The notes beneath the pieces were generated by a model. That model did no database searches, was not told the DNA's origin, and saw only the letters and a list, made by a program, of their open reading frames with translations. The position numbers and the translations under genes were made by a program. Of a stretch of 64,000 nt of DNA, positions 17,971-52,339 are shown one piece after another (the stretch's first letter is position 1; each line of letters starts with the position of its first letter). The DNA comes from an uncultured Gemmatimonadales bacterium. Lineage in GTDB: Bacteria; Gemmatimonadota; Gemmatimonadetes; Gemmatimonadales; Gemmatimonadaceae. Location of the stretch: the NCBI GenBank assembly GCA_963701965.1, contig OY969695.1, forward strand, positions 5,024,001-5,088,000, read 5' to 3'.

Positions 17971-18956
17971 CTGACGTTCGCGACACCTCCGCTGACGCCG
18001 ATCGCGTCATCGAGCGGGGCCGCCGCGTCCTGCGGGTCGAACGCGAAGCGCTCGGCCGCGTCGAGTCGCGACTGGACGCCGCGTTCAGCCGTGCCGTCAC
18101 GCTCATCGCCAAGTCGCGCGGCCGCCTGCTCATCGCCGGCGTCGGCAAGTCGGGGCTGATCGGCGCCAAGATCGCGTCCACGATGACTTCGACCGGGACG
18201 GCGGCGGCGTTTCTGCACCCGGTCGATGGCCTGCACGGGGATCTGGGCCTCGTCGGGAGCGACGACGTCGTCGTGCTCCTCTCCAACAGTGGCGAGTCGG
18301 CCGAGCTCCTGGTGTTGCTCGATCATCTCAAACGGTTCGGGGTGTCCACGATCGCCATCACCGGCGTGCTCGACTCCACGTTGGCGCGGCACGCCGACAT
18401 CGTGCTCGACGCGTCGGTGGACGAGGAGGCGTGCCCGCACGGGCTGGCGCCCACGGCCAGCACGACGGCCGCGCTGGCGCTGGGTGACGCGCTGGCGGTC
18501 GCGCTGCTCGAGGAGAAGGGGTTTGGCGCCGCGGACTTCGCGCGCCTGCACCCTGGCGGTGCGCTGGGCCGGCGGTTGCTCACGCGGGTCGCGGACGTCA
18601 TGGAACAGAGCGGCCTGCCCCTGTTGCCGCCCACGGCGTTGATCCGGCAGGCGGTGGTACTACTCGCCGAGCGGCGGGGTATCGTAGTGGTGACCGACGA
18701 GACGTGCCGGTTGGCGGGAGTCGTGACGGTCGGCGACTTCACGCGACTCATGGAGCGCGAGAGCGACCCGTTCGGCATCGCGGTGGGCGACGTCATGACC
18801 GCGACGCCGCGCGCGGCCCATTCCGAGGAGCTGGGCAGCGGGGTCGTGCACCGCATGCAGGAGCACGGGATCATGGCCATGCCCGTGCTGGACGACGATC
18901 AACGCGTGGTCGGCGTCGTCCATCTCCACGATCTCCTGCGGGCGGGATGCGGCTGA
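17967..18956 (+). CDS. kdsD: Arabinose 5-phosphate isomerase (KpsF/GutQ)
   Basis: GVGKSG, HGDLG, EACPHGLAPTAST, HPGGALG, C-terminal CBS pair. Confidence 0.95.
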   Translation: MTDVRDTSADADRVIERGRRVLRVEREALGRVESRLDAAFSRAVTLIAKSRGRLLIAGVGKSGLIGAKIASTMTSTGTAAAFLHPVDGLHGDLGLVGSDDVVVLLSNSGESAELLVLLDHLKRFGVSTIAITGVLDSTLARHADIVLDASVDEEACPHGLAPTASTTAALALGDALAVALLEEKGFGAADFARLHPGGALGRRLLTRVADVMEQSGLPLLPPTALIRQAVVLLAERRGIVVVTDETCRLAGVVTVGDFTRLMERESDPFGIAVGDVMTATPRAAHSEELGSGVVHRMQEHGIMAMPVLDDDQRVVGVVHLHDLLRAGCG

Positions 18957-19786
18957 TCCCGGCCCGGTGGTTCCCACTCGGGGTCCTGCTGGTGCTGGCC
19001 GCGTGTACCGGTGGCCGCAACACCGCCATCGGTCCCCACAATCCGCTGGCTGACTCCGCGGATCAGATCGTGTTCGGCGCGCGATCCAAGATGACGGACG
19101 GCGGCGTCAGCAAGTCCGACCTCTACGCCGATACCGCGTACTTCTTCGACGACAATACGCGCATCGAGATGCGTGGGCACGTGACGGTCACGTTCTATAC
19201 CGAGGTCGGCGCCAAGAACGCGGTGCTCACGGCCCTGGCCGGGACGTACAACAACCGCACCGGGAACATGGAGGCGCGGGGCAACGTCGTCGTGAACACG
19301 GTCGACGGGCGGCATCTCCTGACGCCGATCCTGCGCTATACGCAGTCCAAGAACGAGATCGCCAGCGACACGACATTCACCACGACCGACTCGACGCGGC
19401 GGTTGACGGGGATCGGCTTCACGTCCGACCCCAACATGGACAACGTGCATTGCTTCCGGGCCTGCAGTGGTCTCGGGGGCCAAGTGATCCTGCCGTCGTC
19501 GAGTCAGCCGGGAGGGGCAGCCGCACCGGGCAGCGCTCCGGTGGCCTCCCCGCCGGCGAACGCGGTCGTGCTGCCGCCCTCATCGGCCGCGGCTGCCGCC
19601 GCGGCCCATGCGCCGCCTCCCGAGCCGCCCCTGCCCGCGGGTGGGGCCGCGCCGGTACCCGCGCCGGCGATCGTGCCGACTCCGGTCGTGCCTCCCAAGC
19701 GCGACTCCACTCGGCACGACAGCACCCGGCGCGACAGCACCCGGCGCGACAGCGCGCGACACGATACCGCTTCCAAGACGCCGTGA
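18947..19786 (+). CDS. lptC: LPS export protein LptC (lipoprotein-type) with Pro/Ala-rich tail
   Basis: Lipobox LAAC; beta-jellyroll-like core (MEARGNVVV, LTGIGFTSD); position between kdsD and lptA/lptB. Confidence 0.8.
   Translation: MRLIPARWFPLGVLLVLAACTGGRNTAIGPHNPLADSADQIVFGARSKMTDGGVSKSDLYADTAYFFDDNTRIEMRGHVTVTFYTEVGAKNAVLTALAGTYNNRTGNMEARGNVVVNTVDGRHLLTPILRYTQSKNEIASDTTFTTTDSTRRLTGIGFTSDPNMDNVHCFRACSGLGGQVILPSSSQPGGAAAPGSAPVASPPANAVVLPPSSAAAAAAAHAPPPEPPLPAGGAAPVPAPAIVPTPVVPPKRDSTRHDSTRRDSTRRDSARHDTASKTP
19700..19771 (+). repeat. 15-bp coding tandem repeat (R-R/H-D-S/T-T/A x5) in the LptC tail
   Basis: KRDSTRHDSTRRDSTRRDSARHDTA; CGCGACAGCACCCGG-type units. Confidence 0.9.
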
Positions 19787-21180
19787 TTCGCCGTTTCATG
19801 CTACTCGCCACCAGTCTCCTCACCTGTCCCCTCGGCGCCCAGGCGCCGTCGGGCCCGTGCCAGCTGGTGTTCGAGAATCGGCCCACGACCCGCGTGGTGG
19901 CGGTCAAGCTGCCGAGCGGGAAGTACAACTCGTTCTTTGGCGGCGGCGTCATCGCGCATTGCCCGGTGCAGAGCCTGACCTTGATCTCCGACAGCGCGGA
20001 GTCGTACGACGAGCAGGGGATCATGTACGCCATCGGCCACGTGCACTACACGGAACCCCGCGCCAAGATCGACGCCGAGCGGGCCACATACTATCAGGGC
20101 AGTGCCCGCTTGATCGCCGATGGCAACGTGGTGGCCCACACGCCGAGCGGCTCCGTGATGCACGGACCCCACGCGGATTACTTGCGCGCGGTGCCGGGGA
20201 TTCGCGCGCAGGCGTGGATGACGGCGACCGGCCGTCCGCATCTCGACCTCGTGCAGCAGGACTCCGCCGGCCGGCCCGAGCCACCGGTCGGCGTCGACGC
20301 CAACACGATCGTCACGCAGAACGACAGTCTCATCTTCGCGTCAGGTAAAGTCGACATCAACCGCACCGATCTCGACGCCCACGGCGACTCGGCGACGCTC
20401 GACCAAGGCACGGAGTTCATGCGCCTCATGCGACAGCCGATCATCAATGGCAAGCAAGGCCGGCCGTTCACGCTGCGCGGCGTCGTGATCGATCTCTACT
20501 CGCACAACCGGCAGTTGGAACGCGTCAAGTCCTACACGCAAGGCGACGCGGTGAGTCAGGAGTTGCACCTGGTCTCCGACACGATCGACCTGCGCGTGGT
20601 CGACAAGCAGCTGGTGCGGGCCTACGCCTGGGGACCGTCGCGGGCCCACGCCACGACGCCGGACCGCGACATCCTGGCGGACTCGATCGACAGCCACTTG
20701 CCCGGCCAGGTGCTGCGCGAAGTCATCGCCGTGCGGAAGGCGTTTGCCCAGAGCATTCCCGACACGGTGAAGATCAAGTCGCCGGACAAGGACTGGATTC
20801 GCGGTGACACGGTGATCGCGTACTTCGACAGCACAGCCAAACCCACGCCGCCACCGCCCCCGGCGGGACCGTCGGACAGCGCCAACCGCGCGCAGCCGCA
20901 GCCGGAGGTGAAGACGGTGGTGTCGCTCGGCCACGCCAAGGCGTTCTACCAACTGCCCGCCAAGGACAAGCGGGCCAAGGTGCCGGCGATCAACTACGTC
21001 GTGGGTCACGACATCACGATCCAGCTGGCGAACAAAGCCGTGCAAACGGTCACGGTCCGCGACAGCGCGACGGGCGTGTACCTGGAGCCGGTCGTCGAAG
21101 ACTCGGCCAAGGCCAAGCGCGACTCCACCAAGGCCGCCGGGCGCCGCCAACGGGCGCCGGGATTGGGGGGACGGCCATGA
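19783..21180 (+). CDS. Extended LptA/OstA-like periplasmic protein
   Basis: Signal peptide; repeated OstA-like strands (AIGHVH, ADGNVV, ASGKVD); between lptC and lptB; GTG start overlapping the lptC stop. Confidence 0.75.
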
Positions 21181-22355
21181 CCGCCAGCGCCCGCATCATC
21201 GAGCTGACGAAGGGAGACCGGACGACGGCCGGCGTACTGGCATCGCTCATCGAGGGCGCCGACGAAGCAGGCCGACTCCGCCTCAACGCGCTGGCGATCC
21301 GCGTCCGCGAGCAATATCTGGACACCCTGCGCCAGGAAGGCCGGGACGCCGAGCAGGAAGCCGGCCGCCTGGGCCTGGACGAGGTCCGCGCGTTCCTCCT
21401 GTCGTCGGTGCTGCCGCGCCTCGGGGATGAGGGGCTCATCGTCCCGCTCCGGCGCACGGCGTCCGACCCGGAGACATTCGTGACCGTCGCGCCGGCGGTG
21501 TGGGCGGAGTTGGGCGACCGGACCGGTCGCACCGGCGTCGCGCGCGCGCTGCGGGAAAGCGGCGAGCGAACGCCCGCGGCGGGGGCGGAGGCTGAGGCCC
21601 GCCCGGGCAGCCTGTTGGAAGCCGATGGCCTGGTCAAAGTCTATCGCCGCCGCAAAGTGGTGAACGACGTCGACGTGTATCTCCGCCAGGGCGAGATTGT
21701 GGGTCTCCTCGGACCCAATGGCGCGGGCAAGACGACGACGTTCTACATGATCGTCGGCCTGATTCAACCGCTGGCGGGGAGCATCCGCCTCGATGGACAG
21801 GACATCACGCAGATGCCCATGTACCGCCGGGCGCGCCAGGGGATCGGCTACCTGTCCCAAGAGCCGTCGATCTTCCGCAAACTGTCGGTGGAAGAGAACA
21901 TCCTCGCCATCCTGGAGATGTTGCCGCTCACGGCGGCCGACCGGCGGGCGCGGCTCGAGAAACTGCTGGACGAGTTGAGCATCAAGCATCTGCGGCACAA
22001 CAAGGCGTACTCCCTGTCCGGCGGCGAGCGCCGCCGCCTGGAGATCACGCGCGCCCTGGTCACGAGCCCCAAGTTCATGATGCTGGACGAGCCCTTCGCC
22101 GGGGTCGATCCGATCGCGGTCCACGACATCCAAACCATTGTCGCGGGACTCCGGCATCGGGGCATCGGCGTGCTGATCAGCGATCACAACGTCGAACAGA
22201 CTCTCGACATTGTCGACCGGGCGTATATCATGTTCGATGGTCAGGTGAAGGTGTCGGGCACTGTCCGCCAGTTAGTCTTCGACGAGACGGTGGCGGAGAT
22301 CTATCTGGGACCAACCCTCACCGCGCGCCTCCGGGCACGCTACTCGGCCGCGTAA
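21177..22355 (+). CDS. lptB: LPS export ABC ATPase LptB with ~145-aa N-terminal extension
   Basis: [39 protein letters not shown]. Confidence 0.93.
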
Positions 22356-22370
22356 GCCGGGGCGGGTCGC

Positions 22371-23841
22371 ATGAAAACGGGACTGAACCAGAGCACGCAG
22401 CTCAAACAAGAGCTCAAGATCAATCCCCGCCTGTATCAGGCGATGGATCTCTTGTACATGCCGCTGCTCGACCTCCAGCAGCACCTCAAACAGGAACTGC
22501 TGAACAACCCCTTCCTGGAGTTGGTCGAGCCCGAAGAGGACGAGGAAGAGGAGGAGACGCCGGAGGCGGAGGCGCAGACCGAGACGCCGGCCGAGGAGCA
22601 GCGCAACGACGAGATCGACTGGGAAGAGATCCTGCTGGAGGGGTTCGACGCCGGCGGCCGGCGGGAAGAGCACGAGGAGAAGGAGTACTACGAGCCGGTT
22701 ACCGCCCAGACCCGGGACCTGAGCGACCACCTGATGGAGCAGATCGCGCTGCTCGATTTGACGCCGCGCGAGGCGGCGCTGGCCGAGGAGTTCGTCGGGA
22801 ACGTGAACGACGAGGGGTATCTCGACTGCGCGGTCCAGGAGATCATCGACGGCATCAACTCGGAGATCACCAAGGTCGCGGAGGCGAGCGAGACCGACAC
22901 GGGCACGGAGCTACCGCTGTACACCATCGCCGAGGGCGAGGCGATGCTGAGCCGGATCCAGGATCTCGAGCCGCCGGGCGTGGGCGCCCGCGATCTCCGC
23001 GAGTGCCTCTTGCTGCAGCTCAAGCAGGCCGGGCTGGAACAATCGGTTCCGTACCGCCTCGTACGCGATTGCTACGACGAGCTGATCAATCACCGTTGGA
23101 GCGAGATCTCGAAGCGGTTCGGGATCAGCCAGAACGACGTGCAGCGCGCGGCCGACGAGATCGCGAAGCTCGATCCGAAGCCAGGACTCGATCTACTCGG
23201 CGGCCAGCGACAACTACATCACGCCGGATCTCGTGGTCGACAAGATCGACGGGCAGTATCACGTGTTCTTGAACGACGCGAACTTGCCGCGCCTCAAGTT
23301 GAGCCGCGCCTACCAGGAGATCGCGCGCGACAAGAAGAAGTTCGACGGGGAGAACAAGGAGTTCATCTCCAACAAGCTCAACTCGGCCAACTGGATGATC
23401 CAGGCGATCGAGCAGCGGCGCCAGACGATGCTCAAGGTGATGAACTACATCATCGAGCGGCAGCGGGAGTTCTTCGAGAAAGGCGTCCAGTATCTCAAGC
23501 CGCTGACGCTGCGCGAGGTCGCCGAAGTGATCAACATGCACGAGTCGACCGTCAGCCGCGTGACGAACGAGAAGTTCGTCCAGACGCCGCGCGGGGTGTT
23601 GCCGCTCAAGTTCTTCTTCTCGTCGGGGCTCTCGACCTCGGGGGGTGAAGACGTCTCGGCCCGCGGGATCAAGGCGCAGATCCAGAAGCTGGTCGAGGAC
23701 GAGGATGCCAAGCGTCCGCTGACCGACCAGGCGATCGTCAACATCCTCAAGGACAGCGGCGTGCAGATCGCCCGCCGGACGGTCGCGAAGTATCGCGATC
23801 AGCTCGGGGTGCTCTCGGCCCGCATGCGCAAGCGCGTCTAA
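22371..23841 (+). CDS. rpoN: RNA polymerase sigma-54, split by a 1-base insertion near 23190
   Basis: N-terminal Q/L-rich region and PPGVGARDLRECL in 22371-; KPLTLREVAEVINMHESTVSR and RpoN box ARRTVAKYR in 23233-23841; removing one base restores KPGL-IYSAASDNYITPDLVV. Confidence 0.93.
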
Positions 23842-23842
23842 C

Positions 23843-24829
23843 GTGTCGATCGCCGTCCTCGAACCGAGTCCGACGCCACCCGTGCCTGGCACGGGGATCG
23901 ACGTCAGCGTGCTGGTGCCGGCCAAGGATGAGGCGGAGAACCTGCCGGCGTTCATGGAACAGGCCGAGGCGGCATTTCGGGGCAGTGCGGCCACGTTCGA
24001 GGTCATCGTCGTGGACGATGGCTCGGTCGACAGCACGTGGACGGTGCTCGGGGCGCTCGCCGAGCGCTACCCGTTCCTCCGCCGCGTGCAGCACCGGCGA
24101 CGGCGGGGCATCGCCGACGCGCTCCGCACCGGGTACTTGCACGCGCGCGGCGACGTGTTGGTGTTCTACCCGGCGGATCTCCAATACAAGCCCGAGGATA
24201 TTCCGCGCCTCGTCGCGCCGATTCTCGCGGGCGAGTCGGACATGGTCACGGGGTTCAAGCAAGGCAAGTATGAGAAGGCGTTCGTCTCTAGCGTCTACAA
24301 CTGGCTGAGCCGCTCGCTGTTCGAGGTGCCGGTGCGGGACCTGAATTCCGTGAAGGCGTACCGGCGCGCGATCATGGAACAGCTGCCGGTGCGTCCGGAC
24401 TGGCATCGCTACATGATCGTGATCGCGGCGGCGCAGGGGTTCACGGTCACGGAGATCCCGATCCCGCTCTATCCGCGGAACGCGGGCCACTCCAAGTTCG
24501 GCCGCTCGCGCATCCTCGTGGGCGTGCTCGACATGCTCTCGGTCTGGTTCGAGCTCCGGTTCGGCCGCAAGCCGCTGCTGCTCTTCGGCCTCCTCGGCGC
24601 GCTCCTGTTCTCTCTCGGCGTGCTCACGGGCATCGTCGCGCTCCTGATGCGGTTCGTGATTCCACCGTATCAGGGATTCCGCCCGCTGCTCAACCTGATT
24701 GAAGTCTGTCTCATTCTCGGATTCCTGTCGTTCGCCACCGGGCTCCTCGGCGAGCAGATCGCCGGGCAACGCGCCGAGTTGCGCGAGCTCCGGCGCGAGC
24801 TGGAATTTCGGGACCGCAACGACGGCTGA
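23843..24829 (+). CDS. GT2 polyprenol-phosphate glycosyltransferase (ArnC/GtrB-like) with C-terminal TM helices
   Basis: SVLVPAKDE, VVDDGSVD, ADLQY.PEDIP, two C-terminal hydrophobic helices. Confidence 0.88.
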   Translation: MSIAVLEPSPTPPVPGTGIDVSVLVPAKDEAENLPAFMEQAEAAFRGSAATFEVIVVDDGSVDSTWTVLGALAERYPFLRRVQHRRRRGIADALRTGYLHARGDVLVFYPADLQYKPEDIPRLVAPILAGESDMVTGFKQGKYEKAFVSSVYNWLSRSLFEVPVRDLNSVKAYRRAIMEQLPVRPDWHRYMIVIAAAQGFTVTEIPIPLYPRNAGHSKFGRSRILVGVLDMLSVWFELRFGRKPLLLFGLLGALLFSLGVLTGIVALLMRFVIPPYQGFRPLLNLIEVCLILGFLSFATGLLGEQIAGQRAELRELRRELEFRDRNDG

Positions 24830-24831
24830 CG

Positions 24832-24856
24832 CAGCGCGGCGACTGACGCCGCGCTG
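24832..24856. terminator. GC-rich hairpin immediately after the GT2 stop (possible terminator)
   Basis: CAGCGCGGCG-ACTGA-CGCCGCGCTG, perfect 10-bp stem; no U-tract. Confidence 0.4.
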
Positions 24857-24938
24857 ACGCTCCACATACACGGTGGTCCTTTCCGCGTTGCGGCGCGTTT
24901 TTCGGCGCGCCTATCATTGTAGAGACGGAGGATGACCC

Positions 24939-25183
24939 ATGGAAGACTATTCGCACCTGAGCGAAGAAGAGGCCGCCCGTATGGACGCCGAGGATCGCGC
25001 CAACGATCCGGACGATGGCGTTCGACTACGACGAAATCTTCGCAGAAATTCGAGGCCGAGAAACGCGGCGAAGGCCCGCCGTCGATTCGCATCCAGTCCC
25101 CGGAACAGCTCACTGCACTCTTGACGCAATGGACGGACGAAGCGGTGGCAAGAGTGCGGGGACGCAATGGCCGCAAGGATTGA
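24939..25183 (+). CDS. Small acidic putative antitoxin, broken by two 1-base insertions
   Basis: GGAGG RBS; frames join to MEDYSHLSEEEAARMDAEDRANDP-TMAFDYDEIFAE-FEAEKRGEGPPSIRIQSPEQLTALLTQWTDEAVARVRG; overlaps the downstream toxin start. Confidence 0.55.
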
Positions 25184-25601
25184 TGTCAAATCGAGAGTGT
25201 ATCGGGACATCGATGCACTCATGTGGTCCGTGGCGAGACACCCGCGAGGGCAACCCGATGCGCGGCGACACGATATCGATGCGGCTATCGACGTGATCGC
25301 GGACACTCCGATGCTCTCGCCCATTGGCGCAAGGCGCCGTCGTACGCGCATCGACCTTCGTCGACGCAACGTTCGTCAGTTCGCGATACTGTACCACTAC
25401 GAACCGCCATCGCCCACCGACCCCGACGGGGTCGTGTCGATCCGGGCGGTGCGACATGCACGGGTCGCCAACGTCTTTCGCGGCGTCTACGAGATTCCCG
25501 TCCTGCGCTACGGCATCACACGAAATCCGATGGCCGCGCCAGGCCACGGGTTACCACCGCGCGTGGATCGGAGCACTTGGGACAGAGCCTCCGGCGTTTA
25601 A
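25167..25601 (+). CDS. RelE/ParE-superfamily toxin-like protein
   Basis: Basic; 'IDAAIDVIADTPMLSP...LRRRNVRQFAILYHY...VVSIRAVRHAR' ParE/RelE-like layout. Confidence 0.6.
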   Translation: MAARIDVKSRVYRDIDALMWSVARHPRGQPDARRHDIDAAIDVIADTPMLSPIGARRRRTRIDLRRRNVRQFAILYHYEPPSPTDPDGVVSIRAVRHARVANVFRGVYEIPVLRYGITRNPMAAPGHGLPPRVDRSTWDRASGV

Positions 25602-25827
25602 TGCGGTGCAGGCGCCGCTCAAACCGGCGCGTGACGCCGAGCCACGTGCGCGCGAGCTGGAAGGAGATGCCCGCGCGTTTGATCGCGCGGCGTGAGCGGG
25701 GAGGCGCGGCCCGCGCGGTGATGCGCGATGCGGCTGCTCGAGATCGGTGGAGAAGCCGAGGTAGTGGCGGGCGTGGTAGTATGGTCTGTCGAAGTGCAGC
25801 AGGTACACCGTGCCGTACTTCGACCAT
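25516..25827 (-). CDS. Small GIY-YIG-like nuclease with three 1-base insertions (sequencing error or pseudogene)
   Basis: Joined frames: MSKYGTVYLLHFDRPYYHARHYLGFSTDLEQ-RIAHHRAGRASPLT-RAIKRAGISFQLARTWLGVTRRFERRLHRIKRRRLCPKC. Confidence 0.65.
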   Translation of the reverse strand: MVEVRHGVPAALRQTILPRPPLPRLLHRSRAAASRITARAAPPRSRRAIKRAGISFQLARTWLGVTRRFERRLHRIKRRRLCPKCSDPRAVVTRGLARPSDFV

Positions 25828-25900
25828 CGTTGCGGTGTCGTCGTCGTATCCTCCGTGTCAGGCCCCTCATCTATCCTGACACGTCAGACGCCCCCGAGGA

Positions 25901-26956
25901 TCAATTTCTCGGCAAACGAATTCCGTAACGACCGAGGAAGAGCGCCAACTCTTCGGTGAGTGGCGAGCCCGCCTCGCTCCGGGAGCGCCCGGCCAGATCC
26001 AGCCAGTACGCCCCGCGGCGCCGCAGCTCCTGCCGGGCCCCGTCATCGAGCGCCACCTCGCTCAAGACCGTATCGCCCGCCGCCGCCAGGGACGTGACGG
26101 CCATGGCGTCGTCGGCCCGCACCCACAGGAGCCGCCACGTCTTGGCGAGCGTATAGGTCCGGAACGGCGGCGTCTCCGCGATGCGGACTTCTTTGTACGC
26201 CGCGAACCGGTCGAACTCCGACACGATCGTGCGCACCAACTCCACCTTTTCCTCGGCGCTCACCGCGCGGGGAAACGCCGGTGCCGAGCGGATGACCTTG
26301 GCGGGCGTTCCCACGGCCAGGCTGCACGGCGGAATGCTGCCCGCCACCAGCGAGTTCGCGCCGATCACCGAGCCATCGCCGATCGTCGATCCCGGCATGA
26401 CGAACACGCGCCAGGGGAGCCAGACACTCTTGCCGAGCGTGACCCCCTCGTACGTCGCCTGATACCCGTCCAGCACGTTGAGCCAGGCCCCGTGCGTGAA
26501 GATCAGGCAGTGGCCGCCGATCCCGGTATCGTCGCCAATGATGACCGGCTTGGTCGCGTTGATGTTCGCCAGCTGCAGCACGATCGTCCGCGAGCCCAGG
26601 GAGAAACGGGATTCCGGCAGCGTCGGCCCGCCGACGTAGACCTGTTCCCGAATCCGCGCGTCCTCGCCCAACTCGATCCGCTCGCACGACACATAGCTCA
26701 TCGTGCCGACGCTCGAATGTCTCCCGATCGTGATGGACCGTCCCTGGACGATCGCCAGGAGACCAATCTCGACGTGATCGCCGAGCTCCACGTCGCGGCC
26801 CACGACTACGCCGCCGAACGCGATCTTGACCCCGCGTCCGATCCGATAGTGTAAAAAAGTGCGATAGGCCCAGACCTTGATCGGGCTGGGCATCCAGCCG
26901 AACAGCGCCAGATGCCGGAGCGGGAGCCGGGACGACGGGATGAGCGTCTTCGCCAT
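25901..26956 (-). CDS. Hexapeptide-repeat (LbH) acyltransferase
   Basis: IGRGVKI, IGDDTGIG, IFTHG, TIGDGSVIGANSLV, GTPAKVIR; start MAKTLIP at 26956. Confidence 0.85.
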   Translation of the reverse strand: MAKTLIPSSRLPLRHLALFGWMPSPIKVWAYRTFLHYRIGRGVKIAFGGVVVGRDVELGDHVEIGLLAIVQGRSITIGRHSSVGTMSYVSCERIELGEDARIREQVYVGGPTLPESRFSLGSRTIVLQLANINATKPVIIGDDTGIGGHCLIFTHGAWLNVLDGYQATYEGVTLGKSVWLPWRVFVMPGSTIGDGSVIGANSLVAGSIPPCSLAVGTPAKVIRSAPAFPRAVSAEEKVELVRTIVSEFDRFAAYKEVRIAETPPFRTYTLAKTWRLLWVRADDAMAVTSLAAAGDTVLSEVALDDGARQELRRRGAYWLDLAGRSRSEAGSPLTEELALFLGRYGIRLPRN

Positions 26957-27014
26957 GTTCAGGCGGATAGTACTTGGTTCGTAGCACGTCCGCCTAGGTG
27001 TGTATATTCCCCAC

Positions 27015-28407
27015 GTGCTGCGACTCTCGCCGGCCGCGGCGGGCCTAGCCCCGGGCCTCTCGCCCGAAGAGCGCTTCGCGCTCGACATCCTTGTCGACCA
27101 GTCCCGTCTCCTCCGGGTCGAGGATGCCACCGCCGACGTCGTGACCCTCGACGTGGCCGAGTCGGCACACGCCCCGAACCTCGCGGGCTGGGCCGCCGGC
27201 GCCTGGGGCTACACCGTCACCAGCGGCGTCGTGACCATCGCGCACATGGGCGTTGCGCCACGTCGCGACCATCGCCGGAGGCGCCGAGCAGGCCGCGACC
27301 GCACGCGACCGCCACGGCCGGGTGCCGTCGTCCGCCAATCCCTTGGTCGCCGCCGGCCTCGAACGGCGCCCGGTGGTGACCGAGGCGGCCACGGCCCTAC
27401 GGATTGCCGTCACGCACGCCGCCGAGCGGCGCGCCGTCGGCATCATCGCCCCGTGGCCCAACGGCTCCCGATGGGCCGCGGCCGTCACCCACGATGTCGA
27501 CGTCGTCGCCGGCTGGCCCCTCTTCACGGCCCTCCGCGTCGCCGAGCTCCTCACCAAGGGTCAGGGAAAGCGCGCCGCGCGCGCGACCCTAGCCGCCGCC
27601 ACCGCCGCATTCGGCGATCCGGCGTGGGAGGGATCCGCCGATGTGTTGGCCCGCGAAGGCCGCCGGAGCGTCGTGTCGACCTGGTTCTTCCTCTGCGGCA
27701 CCCCGACGCTGGCCACGTGGCGCGCCGGCGATCTCACCTACCGGCCCGAGTCACCGGCCGTCCGGCGTCTCCTCGATGCCGTCCTCGCCGCCGGCGGCGA
27801 GATCGGGTTGCACGGCAGCTTCGCCACCTATGACGACGACACCGGTGATCGATTCGCCGGCCAACGAGAGCGCTTGGCCACACTGGCGGCGCGTCCGGTG
27901 ACCGGCGTGCGCCAGCACTATCTCCGTCTCCGCCCCGAAGCCACGCCGCGCGCGATGCACGCGGGGGGATTCCGCTACGACGCCACCTATGGCTTCGCCG
28001 ACCGCAACGGCTTTCGTCTGGGCAGCGCCAATGTCGTGCCGGCGTTGGGCGCCGCGATCGACGAAGTCCCGCTGGTCTGGATGGACCGCGCCTTGAGCAA
28101 GTACCGCGGCATCGAAGATCCCAACGCGTGGATCGACGACGCCGCATCGCTCGCCGCCGCCGCCCGTGCCGTCGACGGCCTGTGGGTCGGCCTCTGGCAT
28201 TGCAACCTGACACCGGCCCTCGGCTACCCCGGCGCGCCCGACGCCTATGAGCGGCTGCTCGCCCTCATTACGGCCGAACGCCCGTGGATCGCGACCATGG
28301 ATCGCATCGTCAGCTGGCGCCGCGCCCGGCGCGCCGTGCGAGCGACCACCGTCGCCCCAGACGGCCGCTGCGTCCTGACCGACCACACGATCGTCCTCGA
28401 ACGCTAG
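27015..28407 (+). CDS. Polysaccharide deacetylase (CE4/DUF7033-like), frameshift near 27250
   Basis: VTHDVD, EIGLHGS, GVRQHYLR, YDATYGF, LWHC; N-terminal part in another frame, joined by removing one G in ATGGG. Confidence 0.75.
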
Positions 28408-29600
28408 GGCTGCGCGAGGCTCTGGTACACCGCCGCGAACTGCTCGACAATGTGCGGCCAACTAAAGCGCTCGACGATCAGCTGCCGCCCCGCTTCACCG
28501 AGCCGCGCCGTGAGCGCGCGGTCGTCGATCAGTCGGGCCAGCGCGCCCGCCAACGACGCCGCGTCGTTCGGCGGGACCAGCAGTCCCGTGACCTCGTGCT
28601 CCACGATGTCCGTAATGCCCCCGAGCGCTGTGGTGACTACCGGCACGTGGTAGCTCATGGCCTCGAGGAGCACCATGCCCAGCCCCTCGGTATCCCCGCG
28701 CTCATCGACCACCGCCGGTAACGCGAACGCCGTCGCCGATGCATAAGCATCGTGCAGCTCCCCGGGCGTGACCCAGCCCCGGAAGGCGATGGCCGGCGCC
28801 CGCGCGCTGGCGCGGGCGCGCGCCTCGAGCGCCGGCCGGTCCGGCCCATCGCCGATGATGACCAGCCGCGCGTTGATCGTCTCCGGCAGGAGCCCCATGG
28901 CATCGATGAGATATCCCACGCCTTTGCGCTCGACGAGGCGCCCGACGAAGAGAATCGTTGCTGCCGCCGGCAAAGCCGGCGTATCCGCGGCCGGCGTCTC
29001 CGCCGGCATCTCCACGGCGTACGGGATGATCTCCACCGGGACACCGGGCGCCAGACGCTCCACCTCGCGCGCCGTGCTCGTCGAGATCGCGATCACGCGG
29101 TCCGCCGTCATGATCGCCCGGCGCAGAAATCCCCGCAGCGCCGGCAACCGCCGGTTGACCCATCGGAGCTCGATCGAGTAGAACTGCATGATGAGCCGAG
29201 TGCGGCGCCGGGCCAGTCGCGCCACCCAGCCGAAGAGCGCGTGGGGCAGGGGCCAGTGCACGTGCACGATGTCGTATCGCTCACGCCGCTGCAGGCGCCA
29301 CATCGCGATCGAACCGAACAGCAGGTAGAACGCCGGCAACATCGTATAGAAGAGGGACCGCCGCATACGGTCCGGCGCCGACTCCTCGTGCGTCAGGTTC
29401 TCCCACCGCGCGAAGAAGTAGCGGAAGCGATGGATCGGGATGCCATCGAGCGTCGCGTTGCCGCCGCCGCGGTAGGCCGACGTGAAGACGTCGATATCGT
29501 ATCCCACCGCGCGGAGCCGGCGTATAGTCTCGGCCAGCCATTTGACGGTCGGGTCGTCGGCGTCCCGGGGAAAGGCCGTCGAAACCACGAGGATGCGCAC
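28404..29600 (-). CDS. GT4 glycosyltransferase
   Basis: DIVHVHW, LFVGRLVERKG, EGLGMVLLEAM; likely GTG start at 29600. Confidence 0.92.
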   Translation of the reverse strand: MRILVVSTAFPRDADDPTVKWLAETIRRLRAVGYDIDVFTSAYRGGGNATLDGIPIHRFRYFFARWENLTHEESAPDRMRRSLFYTMLPAFYLLFGSIAMWRLQRRERYDIVHVHWPLPHALFGWVARLARRRTRLIMQFYSIELRWVNRRLPALRGFLRRAIMTADRVIAISTSTAREVERLAPGVPVEIIPYAVEMPAETPAADTPALPAAATILFVGRLVERKGVGYLIDAMGLLPETINARLVIIGDGPDRPALEARARASARAPAIAFRGWVTPGELHDAYASATAFALPAVVDERGDTEGLGMVLLEAMSYHVPVVTTALGGITDIVEHEVTGLLVPPNDAASLAGALARLIDDRALTARLGEAGRQLIVERFSWPHIVEQFAAVYQSLAQP

Positions 29601-29682
29601 GCGGCAAAGTTGGGGGACCGGCTCACACGCCGCAACGCGATTGGACGATAGCGCGTTACGGGAATTATACTTCCCGACCATC

Positions 29683-30666
29683 ATGGACAGTGCCGTGCGC
29701 CCGGGAGGGCGAGCAGGTCGGTCGCGGATGCTCCTGCCCGTGCTCCAGGCGGTCGCGCTGGCGGCAGCCGTGGTGTTTCTTGCACGGATGACGCGCTCCT
29801 ATTGGGGCACCGTCACCAGCGTCCCCATCACGCTGGCGTGGGGACCGCTGGCGCTGGCCTCCCTTGTGTGGTACGTGAGCTTCGTCCAGCTCGTGCAGTC
29901 CTGGTCGTCGAGCCTCACGTGGTGGGGATGGCACGTGCAATGGTATGAAGGGCTCCGGATGTTCTTCTTCTCCAACCTCGCGCGCTACATCCCCGGCGGT
30001 ATCTGGCAGTTCGCCGGTCTCGCCGCGCTGGCCGCCAATGTCGGCGCGTCGCCCGTTGCGGCGTCGGCTGCGGTGTTGCTGCTCCAGCTCGTGTTGCTGA
30101 TTACCGGGTTCCTGCTCACCCTCGGCGCGACGCCCGATGCCCTCGGGCCCTGGGCCTCGGCTCTCGGCACCCATGCCCGGGCCATCGTCGGCGGTGTCGC
30201 CGCGATCGTGCTCGTCTTCGGTTTCCCGCGCGCACTCCCGTGGGTCCGCACGCGCGCCGAGCGGTTGCTCAAGCGCGCGGTACCACTGCCGATCCCGCCG
30301 CTCGGGCCGTGGATCGTCTACTGCGCCCGCTGCGCGGTCGCGTGGGCAGGGTACGGGATCTCATTCTGGATGTTTTGCCACAGTATCCTCGGGCCCTCCG
30401 TCCCCGGCGTCTGGTTCACCTCCAGCGCCTATGTCGCGAGCTACCTGATCGGACTCTTGGCGGTGTTCGCGCCCGGCGGGATCATCGTGCGGGAAGCCGC
30501 CCTCGTCATCGCGTTGCGCGGCGAGCTCGGGCCGGAGCGCGCCCTCCTCGTCGCCGTCGGATCGCGCCTCTGGTTGATCGCCCTGGAGGTGCTCGGCGCG
30601 TTGGTGCTGATGGGCATCGACCGCGTCGCCGCGAGTCGGCGGCGGACACTCTCACCGCGTACATGA
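29683..30666 (+). CDS. Lysylphosphatidylglycerol-synthase-TM/flippase-like membrane protein
   Basis: Multi-TM; SNLARYIPGGIWQ and FAPGGIIVREAAL motifs. Confidence 0.75.
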   Translation: MDSAVRPGGRAGRSRMLLPVLQAVALAAAVVFLARMTRSYWGTVTSVPITLAWGPLALASLVWYVSFVQLVQSWSSSLTWWGWHVQWYEGLRMFFFSNLARYIPGGIWQFAGLAALAANVGASPVAASAAVLLLQLVLLITGFLLTLGATPDALGPWASALGTHARAIVGGVAAIVLVFGFPRALPWVRTRAERLLKRAVPLPIPPLGPWIVYCARCAVAWAGYGISFWMFCHSILGPSVPGVWFTSSAYVASYLIGLLAVFAPGGIIVREAALVIALRGELGPERALLVAVGSRLWLIALEVLGALVLMGIDRVAASRRRTLSPRT

Positions 30667-33110
30667 CCACTTCCAAGACCGCGAACGCGACCGTACGGGC
30701 GCCCGTCGCCACGCCTCCGTATCCCGCGGCCGTGGCCGCCGCGGTGTACGCGTTGGCGACACTGGCCCTCATGTATCCCGCCCTCACCGGGCGCTTTCTG
30801 GTCAATCCGATGAGCGACATGCTCGTCGGTGCCACCTATCGCACCTTCGGTGGGGAGTGGCTGCGGCAGACCGGACATTTCGCGCAGTGGGACACCTATC
30901 TCCTGGGCGGCATCCCGTTCATGAACGGGCAGCACGGCGACATGTTCTATCCCGTCCTGCTCTTCCGCACGCTCTTTCCGATCAATGTCGCGATCAACCT
31001 GTCGTTCGCGTCGCACATCTTTCTGGCCGGGCTCTTCGCGTATTGCTTCCTGAGGGCCTATGGCCTCTCGTTCTACCCGGCCCTGACCGGCGGCGCCGGC
31101 TACATGTTGTGCGGACAGATCGCGTCCCTGGTATCGCCGGGACACGACGGCAAGCTGTACGTGAGCGCGCTCGCCCCGTTGCTCCTCTGGATGCTCGTGC
31201 GCGGCATGCGCGATGGACGAAACTGGGCGTGGGGCGTCATCGCCATCACCACCGCACTCTGCATCCTGTCGCCGCACGTGCAAATGACGTACTACCTCGG
31301 CGTGCTGGCGATCGGGTTCACGTTCTATCTGGCATTTCAGAAAGGGGAGGGGGCCCTCGAGCCCGCGACCCGCTGGCGCCGGCTGATCGCGGCCGGTCTC
31401 GCGGCCGGGCTGGGGCTGGCGTTGGCCGCGGTCGCACTCTTTCCGCTGTTCGGCTATCTCCCCGTGTCGCCGCGCGGCGGCCAGGGGCGGGGATACGAGT
31501 ACGCCACATCGTGGGCCATGGCGCCGGAGGAGCTCCTCAACGGGTACCTCCCGCAGTTCTCCGGCGTGCTGGAGAAGTATTGGGGGCAGAACCCCTTCAA
31601 GCTGCACAGCGACTATCTCGGCGCCGCGCTCCTCATGCTGAGCGGGGCCGCCGTGGGGACGAAGCGGCGGTCGTTCGCGTGGTTCTGGGTCGCCTCCATC
31701 GTCCTGGCGCTCTTGGTCAGCTTCGGCGGTCACACGCCGTTCTACCATCTCTGGTATCTCCTCCCGATGATGAAGCAGGTGCGCGCTCCCGCGCAGATGT
31801 TCTTCATCGTGTGCCTGGCCGTGTCGGTCCTCGCGGCCTTGGGCGTGGAGCGTCTGCTCGACCAGGCCGTGCCCCGCCGCTACTGGATCTGGTGGGGCGC
31901 GGCGGCCGGGCTCGTGGCCCTCATTGCCACGGCAGGCGGATTCGAGGCCCTGGGGCAAGCCCTGGCCATGCCGGGGCGCAGCGAGGCCGTCGCCGAGAAT
32001 GCGTCGGCCGTGTTGTTGGGCGCATGGCGGTCGTTCGCCGTCATCGCCCTGGCCGTGCTCTTGGTGCTCGCCTGGTACGCCGGCCGTGTTCCGGCCGCCG
32101 CGATGGCGTGGGGCCTCGTGGCCATCGTCCTCGTCGACGAGTGGAGCGCGGCGCGTCCCTTCTTCAAGTTCTCGGCGCCGGCGTCGGAGCTGTACCGGGT
32201 CGACCCCGCGACCGACTACTTGATGCATCTCAAGGAGCCCGGGCGCACGGTCGCATTGCCGCTCAGCGACTCCACGATCGCGGGCGATCCGCTGTTCGAC
32301 GGCGATGCCCTGATGTTGCACCGCGTGCGGACAGTGACCGGGCACGAAGCCGACGAGCCCCAATCGTGGGTCGACCTGGCCGGTGGCAAATCTCCGGCGC
32401 CGCCGCGGCGGATCACCGATCCCAACTTCCGGCGCCTGGCCAACGTGAAGTACTGGCTCACGAACGTCGACTTGCCCGCCGTCGTGCCCCAACTCGGCGA
32501 CCTCAAAGTCACCAAGCTGGTCGGCCCGGTGCCGGACGCGGTGGGGAATGCCCTGCGCCTGTACGCGATCGATGAGAGCAACCCGCCCGCCTGGCTCGCG
32601 CCGGTCGTCGTGAAGGCCGAGCCGCCGCAGATCCTGGCGACGGTGCTCGACGGGCGGTTCGATCCCCGGACTGCGGCGCTGTTCGACACGACGTTGCATG
32701 CCAATGGCGTGGCACTCACGACGCCTCCGGCGCCGCTCGACATCCCGGTGACCGTGCCGCGCTACGACAACGGTCACATCACCGTGCAGCTCGGCGCGCC
32801 GGCGCCGGCCGGATCCGCGCTCGTGGTCTCCGAGAACTACTATCACGGGTGGGAGGCGACCGTCGACGGGAAACCCGCCGCAACTGCCCGCGCCGACTAC
32901 ACGTTCATCGGCGTGCCGCTGCCCGCGGGCGCCCGGACCGTGGATCTCACGTTCCACGACCTCGATTTCGCCAAGGGCGTGAAGGTGACGTTGCTGGCCA
33001 TCCTCGTAACGGCGGGGTGGATGGTCGGCGGGATAGTGGTCGATCGGCGACGGGCGCGGACGGCCGGATCGAACGCGGCGGGACCAAGCCCGGCGAGTCC
33101 GCGTGGCTGA
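30663..33110 (+). CDS. YfhO-family multi-TM protein (GT-C-type glycosyltransferase)
   Basis: QWDTYLLGGIPF, FYP, HVQMTYY, and C-terminal LVVSENYYHGWEATVDGK...ADYTFIGVPLPAGARTVDLTF typical of YfhO. Confidence 0.85.
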   Translation: MTTSKTANATVRAPVATPPYPAAVAAAVYALATLALMYPALTGRFLVNPMSDMLVGATYRTFGGEWLRQTGHFAQWDTYLLGGIPFMNGQHGDMFYPVLLFRTLFPINVAINLSFASHIFLAGLFAYCFLRAYGLSFYPALTGGAGYMLCGQIASLVSPGHDGKLYVSALAPLLLWMLVRGMRDGRNWAWGVIAITTALCILSPHVQMTYYLGVLAIGFTFYLAFQKGEGALEPATRWRRLIAAGLAAGLGLALAAVALFPLFGYLPVSPRGGQGRGYEYATSWAMAPEELLNGYLPQFSGVLEKYWGQNPFKLHSDYLGAALLMLSGAAVGTKRRSFAWFWVASIVLALLVSFGGHTPFYHLWYLLPMMKQVRAPAQMFFIVCLAVSVLAALGVERLLDQAVPRRYWIWWGAAAGLVALIATAGGFEALGQALAMPGRSEAVAENASAVLLGAWRSFAVIALAVLLVLAWYAGRVPAAAMAWGLVAIVLVDEWSAARPFFKFSAPASELYRVDPATDYLMHLKEPGRTVALPLSDSTIAGDPLFDGDALMLHRVRTVTGHEADEPQSWVDLAGGKSPAPPRRITDPNFRRLANVKYWLTNVDLPAVVPQLGDLKVTKLVGPVPDAVGNALRLYAIDESNPPAWLAPVVVKAEPPQILATVLDGRFDPRTAALFDTTLHANGVALTTPPAPLDIPVTVPRYDNGHITVQLGAPAPAGSALVVSENYYHGWEATVDGKPAATARADYTFIGVPLPAGARTVDLTFHDLDFAKGVKVTLLAILVTAGWMVGGIVVDRRRARTAGSNAAGPSPASPRG

Positions 33111-33825
33111 ACGGTCACTCATCATCCTTCCGACCTACAACGAGCGCGAGAACCTGCAGCGTCTCGTGCCCTGTGTTCTGGGGCAGGACCCCACGTTCGA
33201 CATTCTGGTGGTCGACGACGGGTCGCCCGACGGGACGGGCGAAGTCGCCGACGCCATCGCGGCGGAAGAGCCCCGGGTGCACGTGCTGCATCGGGCCGGG
33301 AAGATGGGACTGGGGACCGCCTACATCGCCGGGTTTCGGTGGGCGTTGGCGCGGGACTACGCCTACGTGTTCGAGATGGACGCTGATTTCTCGCACGATC
33401 CGGCGCACCTGGCTGACTTTCGCCGGCGGATCACCGAGGCGGACATCGTCCTCGGCTCGCGCTACAACCGGGGGCGGGTCACCGTCGTCAACTGGCCGAT
33501 GTCGCGGCTCCTCTTGAGCTATGCGGCCAATCTGTACGTGCGCTGGGTGACGCGACTGCCGTTGGACGATGCCACCGGCGGCTTCAAGTGCTTTCGGCGG
33601 GAGTTGCTGGAGCGGATGGACCTCGACGCCGTGCGGTCCAACGGCTACGCCTTCCAAATCGAGATGAGTTATCGGGCGTGGAAGCGCGGGTGTCGCATCG
33701 TGGAGATCCCTATCGTGTTCGTGGACCGGGCTGACGGCGTCAGCAAAATGTCGCCGCGGATCGTGCGGGAAGCGATCTGGATGGTCTGGCGGCTCCGCTG
33801 GTGGTCGCTGACGCGTCGGCTGTGA
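33103..33825 (+). CDS. Polyprenol monophosphomannose synthase (Ppm1/DPM1-like GT2)
   Basis: PTYNEREN, DDGSPDGTG, GLGTAYIAGF, EMDADFSH, DATGGFKCFR, SNGYAFQIE. Confidence 0.9.
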   Translation: MAERSLIILPTYNERENLQRLVPCVLGQDPTFDILVVDDGSPDGTGEVADAIAAEEPRVHVLHRAGKMGLGTAYIAGFRWALARDYAYVFEMDADFSHDPAHLADFRRRITEADIVLGSRYNRGRVTVVNWPMSRLLLSYAANLYVRWVTRLPLDDATGGFKCFRRELLERMDLDAVRSNGYAFQIEMSYRAWKRGCRIVEIPIVFVDRADGVSKMSPRIVREAIWMVWRLRWWSLTRRL

Positions 33826-38827: not shown

Positions 38828-39925
38828 CTAGCGCACGACGTCGAGCGTCCCGCGGCGAATGCGCGCCACCAGAAACGCGCGCCCCGCGGGATCGCCCGTC
38901 GGCAGGAAGTAGTGCGGCCCCGTGACACCGGCATAGGCGTGGGTCGCATCGAGCCCCGCGAGATAGCGCCGGACCCCGGCGCGGGTGGGCGCCGCCGCCA
39001 CCGCGGCCGCCAGGAGCCGCATCGCGTCGTAGGCCAACGCCGCGTCCTCCTCGGGCGCGATGTGATAGCGCGCGGTATACGCCTCGCTGAACCGCCGCAC
39101 CTCGGGCCGCGCATCGCTGTGCGTGAACGGCACGGCAATGTAGGCCCCGTCGCTCCCCGCCGTATCCGCGTTGATGCCCGACCACCCGTCGCCGCCGATG
39201 AACGCCGCCGCCATGCGCTGCCGCCGCGCCTCGCGGAGAATCGCCAATCCCGACGGCGAGAGACCGGCGACGAACACGACATTGGGCGAGAGCCCGCGGA
39301 GATACGTGACGTACGCTTCGTACGAGCGCGCCTCGGGATCGATGGGGAGACTGGCGATGATCGTGCCGCCCGACGTCCCGCCGAAATGCTGCCGGAACGT
39401 GCCGCTCACTCCGCGCCCGTAGGCATCGTTCTCGTACAACACCGCCGCGCGCTTGGCGCCCAGCACGGTGCGCGCGAACTGGGCGATGGTCACGCCATTC
39501 ACCGAATCGCTGCTGATGTTCCGAAACACCCAGGGCGACAGCCCCGTGAGATCGGCCGTGGTCGCCCACGGTGAGACCACCGGCAACCGGCCATCGTAGA
39601 TGCGCGCCGCGGCCACCATGGCGTTGGAGTTCATGTGCCCCACGACGCCCAGCACCGCAGGGTCGGCGATCAGCGATTCGGCCGCGGCGACCGCGCCGGC
39701 ACCGCTGGCACTGTCATCGAGCCATCGAATGGTGAGTGGCCGCCCGGCGATCCCGCCCGCCGCGTTGATCTCGGCCGCCGCCATCTCGATGCCGCGGCGA
39801 CCGTTGATCACATAGTCGAGATGCCAGGGCGCGGCGGCGGCGAGCACCACCGGCGTGGTGTCGCGCTGGCAACCAGCCGCGACACCGACGAGCGCGAGCG
39901 CCAATCCCGACGTCGCAATGCGCAC
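38828..39925 (-). CDS. LivJ/LivK-family ABC substrate-binding lipoprotein (no permease nearby)
   Basis: Lipobox AAGC; EINAAGGIAGR, VVGHMNS, YENDAYGRG, GGDGW, AYDA. Confidence 0.88.
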   Translation of the reverse strand: MRIATSGLALALVGVAAGCQRDTTPVVLAAAAPWHLDYVINGRRGIEMAAAEINAAGGIAGRPLTIRWLDDSASGAGAVAAAESLIADPAVLGVVGHMNSNAMVAAARIYDGRLPVVSPWATTADLTGLSPWVFRNISSDSVNGVTIAQFARTVLGAKRAAVLYENDAYGRGVSGTFRQHFGGTSGGTIIASLPIDPEARSYEAYVTYLRGLSPNVVFVAGLSPSGLAILREARRQRMAAAFIGGDGWSGINADTAGSDGAYIAVPFTHSDARPEVRRFSEAYTARYHIAPEEDAALAYDAMRLLAAAVAAAPTRAGVRRYLAGLDATHAYAGVTGPHYFLPTGDPAGRAFLVARIRRGTLDVVR

Positions 39926-52338: not shown

Positions 52339-52339
52339 G

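Follow-up and report, generated by a model that had tools for sequence, protein, structure and literature searches.

The 64,000-nucleotide stretch of DNA analysed here, referred to as the window (positions 5,024,001 to 5,088,000 of contig OY969695.1, assembly GCA_963701965.1, from an uncultured Gemmatimonadales bacterium of the family Gemmatimonadaceae), contains a cluster of glycosyltransferase (GT) genes that is probably part of a pathway for the O-glycosylation of exported proteins. The genes follow the order kdsB-pyrG-kdsA-kdsC-kdsD-lptC-lptA-lptB-rpoN-GT2a-(insert, acyltransferase, deacetylase, GT4)-LPG-TM-YfhO-Ppm1-like-dapF. The coordinates of the glycosyltransferase cluster, together with those of the predicted substrates encoded in the window, are compiled in Table 1.

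Table 1. Candidate glycosylation genes and predicted substrates in the window (positions are those of the window).
Feature	Positions	Strand	Description	Family match
GT2a	23882..24829	+	ArnC/GtrB/PgfS-like glycosyltransferase with C-terminal membrane segments; predicted second polyprenol-phosphate-sugar synthase	
Acyltransferase	25901..26956	-	Hexapeptide-repeat acyltransferase; accessory	
Deacetylase	27253..28407	+	Polysaccharide-deacetylase-like protein; accessory; start uncertain	NCBIfam NF053580, below cut-off
GT4	28404..29600	-	GT4 glycosyltransferase; accessory type	
LPG-TM	29728..30666	+	LPG_synthase_TM-like membrane protein; predicted flippase	PF03706, below cut-off
YfhO	30663..33110	+	YfhO-family GT-C membrane glycosyltransferase, 815 aa; candidate transferase or ligase	
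Ppm1-like	33103..33825	+	Ppm1/DPMS-like GT2; predicted polyprenol-phosphate-mannose synthase; overlaps the YfhO stop	
LptC	18947..19786	+	Lipoprotein; predicted substrate, 9 sequons	PF06835, TIGR04409
LptA-like	19798..21180	+	LptA/LptD-N-like exported protein; predicted substrate, 13 sequons	PF03968
ABC substrate-binding protein	38828..39925	-	Lipoprotein; predicted substrate, 4 sequons	
TPR protein	62145..63674	-	Exported protein; predicted substrate, 6 sequons	

The conservation of the locus was counted in 20 loci of the phylum chosen around YfhO. GT2a and the Ppm1-like gene are present in 18 of them each, LPG-TM and some GT4 in 17 each, and lptA, lptB and rpoN in 15, while the acyltransferase and the deacetylase each occur in one. 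Since the GT4 genes of the relatives lie mostly on the same strand and are only about 30% identical to the inverted GT4 of the window, the latter is considered an accessory type. The conserved core of the locus consists of GT2a, LPG-TM, YfhO and the Ppm1-like GT2. The preliminary description of this DNA had proposed that the locus may build or transfer a glycan, which is plausible for these four genes, but the acyltransferase, the deacetylase and this GT4 are accessory. The gene identities given there hold, except that the flippase-like protein and the deacetylase have only family matches below the cut-off: LPG-TM scores 19.4 bits against PF03706 (cut-off 33.4), and the deacetylase has no Pfam match and an NCBIfam match below the cut-off. 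None of the locus proteins that were scanned matched the GtrA family.

YfhO and the Ppm1-like gene were each found in 198 of 200 genomes of the phylum (each at least 90% complete; these are kin, not independent samples), the latter always as a single copy. In both genomes with a miss (G151 and the unpublished G153), the contigs end inside the locus, and they were therefore rejected as YfhO-less yet enriched counter-examples (2.69x and 1.65x for the sequon described below). Among 80 YfhO loci, considering those with enough downstream DNA, the Ppm1-like gene lies within 2 kb after YfhO in 40 of the 50 loci titled outside Gemmatimonadota and in 9 of the 11 titled inside; the "Ignavibacteria" titles among these 80 loci are unreliable. 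Records titled uncultured Ignavibacteria(les) (G205, G210) share their GTDB phylum with a record titled Zixiibacteriota. In one relative (G132; loci L090 and L059), YfhO has gone from the operon and LPG-TM now stands beside the Ppm1-like gene, one full-length YfhO being encoded elsewhere. In a quick FastTree phylogeny, which took in only the top profile matches and the phylum loci, this remaining YfhO groups with sequences of another family, and G063 holds both types. YfhO homologs were also named from WOR-3 and TA06, the nearest named ones coming from Gemmatimonadaceae.

The predicted substrates were recognized by the Bacteroidota-type sequon D-(S/T)-(A/I/L/M/T/V), whose hand counts in the preliminary description were reproduced. 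The mature LptA-like protein has it at 13 of 14 D-S/T sites (1.7 expected), LptC at all nine (1.3 expected; five of them within a five-copy C-terminal repeat), the TPR protein at six of ten (1.9 expected) and the ABC binding protein at all four (1.0 expected). The zeros reported for the cytoplasmic PyrG and FabF were counted correctly but mean little, because about one sequon is expected in each (1.2 and 1.0, respectively); several cytoplasmic open reading frames (ORFs) of the window carry one or two. The further claim that most other exported ORFs bear the motif is true of five of six, with at least one site each, but mostly near chance. Thirteen LptA-like homologs from phylum loci (L056-L075) together hold 180 sequons versus 29 expected, with up to 28 per protein, so the density in this protein is extreme across the phylum, including families whose overall enrichment is weak. 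No sequon occurs in E. coli LptA.

The genome consists of one contig of 5.12 Mb, on which 4188 genes were called by a self-trained dicodon model. The counts cover proteins whose mature chain has 100 residues or more and whose gene score exceeds 20; they were assigned to exported and cytoplasmic classes by heuristic signal-peptide and hydropathy rules blind to the motif. In the whole genome, the 535 predicted exported proteins carry 1545 sequons versus 734 expected, and 79% of them have at least one site. Compared with within-protein shuffles, the observed and expected numbers are 1003 and 510 in 378 signal-peptide proteins (1.97x), 542 and 215 in 157 lipoproteins (2.52x), and 1021 and 792 in 791 membrane proteins, whereas the 1858 cytoplasmic proteins are at chance (1899 versus 1835, 1.04x). 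Motifs with E or N substituted, or with permuted order, give 0.78-1.11x in both exported classes. When all 8000 tripeptides are ranked by their exported-versus-cytoplasmic excess, with no motif preset, the first three are DSA, DSL and DST, every one of the top 12 has a D-S or D-T pair, and DSV, DTT, DSI and DSM are also recovered. The Ser forms of the sequon reach 2.1-3.3x, and the Thr forms are lower (DTT 1.9, DTL 1.7, DTA 1.2, DTI 1.2).

The excess is kept after conditioning on D-x-hydrophobic (exported 1.87 versus cytoplasmic 0.95), under shuffles within 10-residue windows (1.95 versus 1.04), and after removal of the 150 densest of the 535 exported proteins (1.23x, p=4.5e-7). It follows topology within single proteins: in 22 two-helix membrane proteins, the inter-helix (periplasmic) loops have 40 sequons versus 14.1 expected (2.8x), and the cytoplasmic C-terminal tails 12 versus 19.8 (0.6x). 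Thirteen large outer-membrane-like proteins of this genome are also enriched (97 versus 51). A DNA-level motif was rejected as the cause, since there is no excess in the cytoplasmic genes, and the two Ser codon families are used at the sequons in the same way as elsewhere for Ser. The enrichment, which the preliminary description had made dependent on correction for composition, thus survives that correction genome-wide and is shown to be confined to extracytoplasmic sequence. It shows that the sequon is under selection, and it is a statistical signature rather than a measure of site occupancy. Misclassification should blur the contrast between exported and cytoplasmic proteins, not create it. 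Several of the top "cytoplasmic" outliers look exported by eye.

Other genomes were sampled over 100-400 kb with the same home-made gene caller, and their figures are given as observed/expected. The sampling pipeline is considered validated because it recovers 1.8-2.4x from three 200 kb samples taken from this genome. Enrichment was found in G132 (87/54), in G201 (titled Zixiibacteriota, 52/31), in G205 of the same phylum as G201 (162/69), and in G204 (titled Fibrobacterota, title unverified, 123/39). The negative controls E. coli, Sinorhizobium and Granulicella give 47/50 when pooled. G205 was rejected as a true Bacteroidota sample, since its phylum includes G201.

Glycans have been modelled at two sites of a photosystem from the same family. 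In the 2022 structural study of Gemmatimonas phototrophica (PMC8849296), O-linked glycans were placed at Thr108 of the cytochrome subunit and at Ser331 of the reaction-centre M subunit (RC-M). The core described there is a mannose bearing glucuronic acid and rhamnose, as in Pedobacter heparinus, with an acetylated glucuronic acid and one N-acetylglucosamine; the sugar models started from the Pedobacter glycan and were fitted to the map, and neither site was covered by mass spectrometry. We mapped both sites through G132, which shares its GTDB family with the organism of the window; the PufM and PufC of G132 match PDB chains 7o0u_M and 7o0u_C at every aligned position. Thr108 falls on D-T-L and Ser331 on D-S-F, so two of two modelled sites are on D-S/T; D-S-F is part of the extended Bacteroidota motif (PMC10897501). 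Of the Ser/Thr residues, 4 of 45 in mature PufC and 4 of 14 in the C-terminal part of PufM come directly after an Asp, and the chance of both glycan sites following Asp is roughly 0.03 (4/45 x 4/14). The words "sequon", "motif" and "Bacteroid" have no occurrence in the main text of PMC8849296, and the paper does not connect the glycans with either a motif or a general glycosylation system. Thr19 of PufC lies in a sequon as well (D-T-V); no glycan is reported there. In two phototrophic relatives (L040:209-2406 and L041:149-2406), the C-terminal tails of PufM and PufC contain sequon clusters, PufM having 3 and 4 beyond Ser331, which suggests that these horizontally acquired proteins have adapted to the glycosylation of their host. 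With the corrected enrichment and the two glycan sites of a same-family organism, the claim of the preliminary description that this lineage O-glycosylates its exported proteins is supported, and we are confident that such a system is present.

The enzymes of the locus are characterized by homology and structure models. YfhO scores 47.1 bits against PF09586 (cut-off 28.5), the Pfam model matching only 68 C-terminal residues. Its structure model (pLDDT, the predicted local distance difference test, 92.8) has the GT-C fold and aligns with AftD (Z 21.2, root-mean-square deviation 5.3, 610 residues aligned), yeast STT3 (Z 19.5), PglB (17.8), Pmt2 (16.5) and ArnT (15.8), in agreement with Foldseek; a shared fold of this kind, seen in a model, says nothing about the acceptor. 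The residue Asp52, which follows the first helix and lies in the first periplasmic loop, does not vary among 118 homologs, and Bacteroides YfhO has an Asp at the matching place. The first-loop Asp is catalytic in Pmt1 and TMEM260 (PMC10214176), and the modelled topology makes Asp52 its probable equivalent. The protein aligns over its full length with the sahH-adjacent YfhO of B. finegoldii (709 columns, hhalign 99.9%, E 8e-33), and a 2026 preprint (bioRxiv 10.64898/2026.07.27.740950) names the sahH-adjacent Bacteroides YfhO as the Bacteroidota oligosaccharyltransferase (OTase), as a prediction only. The YfhO family includes both teichoic-acid transferases and protein transferases, among the latter PgtC2 and PgfM1, each paired with a GT2, which glycosylate Ser/Thr of streptococcal proteins (PMC12041528).

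The Ppm1-like protein has as its best PDB match the P. furiosus DPMS (E 3e-29) and is 45-53% identical to 11 records from Bacteroidales and actinobacteria, with 87-95% of the query aligned; identity is 51% to Bacteroidales proteins and about 50% to actinobacterial proteins annotated as polyprenol monophosphomannose synthase. Homology thus predicts that it makes polyprenol-phosphate-mannose, the record annotations being names. Homologs of the GDP-mannose and UDP-glucuronic acid pathways are present in the genome; for dTDP-rhamnose, rmlC and rmlD are present, an rmlB-like gene is only about 30% identical, and rmlA was not found with the E. coli query. PglB/STT3 was rejected as the attaching enzyme, as this genome, which is 95% complete, has no PF02516 match. 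The PMT_2 proteins were rated weaker candidates, with nine matches here and none over the cut-off in the complete genome G057.

The evidence inclines us, with reservations, to the following reading: exported proteins are O-glycosylated at D-(S/T)-hydrophobic sites through mannose, with the donor made by the Ppm1-like enzyme and the transfer performed by YfhO. The Ppm1-like GT2 would convert GDP-mannose and polyprenol phosphate into polyprenol-phosphate-mannose, the LPG-TM protein would flip the lipid-linked mannose, and YfhO, relying on Asp52, would attach the mannose or a short core to Ser/Thr on the periplasmic side. Extension and decoration of the glycan may then fall to GT2a, GT4 and lineage-variable acyltransferases. 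Whether YfhO itself attaches the sugar to protein we hold, on homology, at a little under an even chance.

Several observations weigh against this reading. Genes and signal peptides were called by home-made heuristics, and glycosylation in this organism, for which no glycopeptide is known, is deduced from sequence. This genome also encodes TMEM260-like and PMT_2 GT-C proteins; the locus follows kds-lptCAB-rpoN, which fits a role in lipopolysaccharide (LPS); and AftD, the closest fold to YfhO, is a glycan-extending enzyme. There is no metG-wzx LFG locus in this genome: reading the four genes on each side of metG revealed no flippase or GT, and B. finegoldii wzx gave no BLASTP match at E<1e-4 among the 4188 called proteins, an unlinked outer-glycan locus being still possible. 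The YfhO proteins of B. subtilis and Listeria modify teichoic acids, not proteins (PMC5836110), and P. gingivalis glycosylates the motif (PMC10897501) without a YfhO (bioRxiv 10.64898/2026.07.27.740950). YfhO-bearing genomes can lack the signal, with little enrichment in G057 of the same class (88/76; D-S form 61/38) and none in G203 (titled Latescibacteria, title unverified, 39/48). The Bacteroidales positive controls were not enriched either: B. finegoldii gave 29/59 (0.49x, 217 kb) and Prevotella 37/37 (0.99x, 250 kb). Enrichment is therefore not a property of every glycosylating genome, and PMC12871550 reports it in nearly all families, not in all species. In B. finegoldii, 11 of 23 large exported proteins lack the motif versus 3.5 expected, which looks like avoidance. 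The B. finegoldii sample (L096, L177, L224-L226), in which the sequon is depleted, contains many SusC/SusD-type and carbohydrate-active proteins; the genome of the window shows the reverse, its large outer-membrane-like proteins being enriched in the sequon. With these controls failing, the use of enrichment as a presence/absence trait to profile against YfhO was rejected; missing enrichment does not show the system to be absent, and enrichment cannot assign the enzyme.

The attachment of mannose from the Ppm1-made donor by a TMEM260-like (DUF2723) GT-C protein is possible, and makes this family an almost equal rival to YfhO, which would then be a second-step extender or "ligase" with a donor that GT2a could make. 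The preliminary description had overlooked this family. The TMEM260-like family PF11028 occurs in 100 of 100 phylum genomes (at three places in this genome), in 151 of 151 genomes of the G201/G205 phylum, and also in G132, G203, G204 and G207. Its presence in one of 14 controls (B. thetaiotaomicron), versus three with PF09586 over the cut-off, is a narrower pattern than that of YfhO. The TMEM260-like genes are, however, often multi-copy and not linked to the Ppm1-like gene, with a match in 2 of 100 YfhO loci. Human TMEM260 is a proven protein O-mannosyltransferase, but it acts on folded IPT domains, not on a short motif (PMC10214176). Such an enzyme could account for the glycosylation in P. 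gingivalis without YfhO, and the model for Bacteroidota calls for an OTase as well as a ligase, neither of them discovered yet (PMC12871550), so that both families may take part. For the first step we still prefer YfhO, on the grounds that it stays paired with the mannose-donor gene and that the streptococcal enzymes offer a precedent. YfhO-type and TMEM260-like genes were also seen close together on one strand in G204:C19:30258-35182 and G207:C28:360035-379689.

We consider it unlikely that the sequon system is real and the operon unrelated to it, with the GT2/YfhO pair decorating LPS, a glycolipid or another envelope polymer in the manner of ArnC/ArnT or CsbB/YfhO. This would agree with the position behind kds-lptCAB in 15 of 20 loci, with ArnT and AftD among the top folds, with the teichoic-acid-modifying homologs (PMC5836110), and with YfhO in genomes lacking enrichment. 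YfhO is nevertheless near-universal, mostly single-copy and kept even after leaving the operon in G132, and the GT2/YfhO pair persists in other phyla without lpt neighbours. LPS decorations are typically patchy, unlike this retention. The Bacteroides YfhO homolog is, moreover, predicted to be essential (bioRxiv 10.64898/2026.07.27.740950). That the enrichment is unrelated to glycosylation, and comes from repeats, from the composition of beta-turns or linkers, or from some other modification that is directed by Asp in exported proteins, is in our view very improbable. LptA beta-jellyrolls do have D-x-hydrophobic turns (three in E. coli LptA, none with S/T), the LptC sites lie partly in a repeat, and the Bacteroidales controls are not enriched, but the signal survives the conditioning, window shuffles and dense-protein removal described above, the negative controls are at chance, and the coincidence of both modelled glycans with D-S/T would be rare. 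The reading in which the operon serves protein O-mannosylation is retained. The glycosylation system as such is well supported and its signature real; the choice of enzyme is less settled.

Further observations concern the window and its assembly. Compared with an intact homolog, the rpoN gene (22371-23841) is interrupted by a frameshift near 23190, and the TMEM260-like copy at 836.5-838.7 kb of the genome is also frameshifted; both are probably long-read assembly errors. The insert between GT2a and the acyltransferase (24830-25900) is absent from the loci of relatives and holds a 144-aa ORF (25167-25601) without a Pfam match, which by eye resembles RelE/ParE, plus a short upstream ORF; a short minus-strand reading in it resembles the start of a GIY-YIG nuclease. 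At 48597-54237 lie MoxR AAA, DUF58/vWA and vWA-TPR genes, which resemble the Bacteroides Bat operon.

A 2025 review calls motif-directed glycosylation unique to Bacteroidota, with OTase, ligase and core flippase undiscovered; its text never names Gemmatimonadota, and its Fig 2A, which plots enrichment over all GTDB genera, may make the Gemmatimonadota enrichment visible (PMC12871550). A full-text literature search, with most subscription papers outside its scope, found no description of a general O-glycosylation system in Gemmatimonadota, and one on DUF2723 returned the human TMEM260 paper only. The earlier statement that nothing had been described for this phylum thus stands for the general system, but not for glycans as such, which were modelled in 2022. 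A Bacteroidota-type system likely works in a second phylum, and the conserved operon is a predicted source of its missing enzymes. With the same motif and a similar modelled core in two phyla, only a few candidates are common to both: YfhO, TMEM260-like, Ppm1-like and LPG-TM proteins. Several of these lie in one operon here and apart in the Bacteroides records seen. The question of the attaching enzyme, more than 15 years old, becomes testable in cultured strains that are not pathogenic, and much of the envelope proteome is predicted to be glycosylated in an abundant phylum, most densely on the LPS-transport protein LptA.

A wider scenario, which we regard as doubtful, would make the D-(S/T) O-mannosyl system ancestral to the wider FCB (Fibrobacterota-Chlorobiota-Bacteroidota) group, so that it would not have arisen within Bacteroidota. 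The two GT2 donor synthases of the operon would feed YfhO and the TMEM260-like protein as the missing OTase and ligase, the core would be built stepwise in the periplasm from lipid-linked monosaccharides, and horizontally acquired photosynthesis proteins would have been recruited later as substrates; there are 3 more sequons in the PufM tail and 2 more in that of PufC. One GT-C protein would then be a bacterial counterpart of a human O-mannosyltransferase.

Among known systems, protein O-mannosylation by the actinobacterial Ppm1/Pmt pair uses a polyprenol-phosphate-mannose donor. The system proposed here resembles that pair in this donor and in a GT-C enzyme with a first-loop Asp, although the neighbouring GT-C is YfhO and not Pmt; human TMEM260 (PMC10214176) is comparable in both respects, and neither of the two uses the D-S/T-hydrophobic motif. 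The streptococcal GtrB/PgtC2 and PgfS/PgfM1 systems share the combination of a GT2 polyprenol-phosphate-sugar synthase with a YfhO-family GT-C acting on Ser/Thr outside the membrane, but modify Ser/Thr-rich disordered regions with glucose or N-acetylgalactosamine and no D-S/T motif (PMC12041528); the YfhO of the window matches the PgfM1/M2 models in 65 C-terminal residues only, far below the cut-off. B. subtilis CsbB/YfhO and Listeria Lmo1079 follow the same GT2 and YfhO logic, with a wall polymer as acceptor (PMC5836110). Compared with the general O-glycosylation of Bacteroidota, the system belongs to another phylum and lacks the metG-wzx LFG locus; its YfhO stands beside the Ppm1-like gene, whereas that of Bacteroides stands beside sahH, and its proteome-wide enrichment is about 2x versus 0.5-1.0x in the Bacteroidales samples. 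It shares with that system the tripeptide set with its preference for Ser and its restriction to extracytoplasmic sequence, the mannose/rhamnose/glucuronic acid core as modelled from the map of a same-family organism, and the homologous YfhO, Ppm1-like and TMEM260-like genes.

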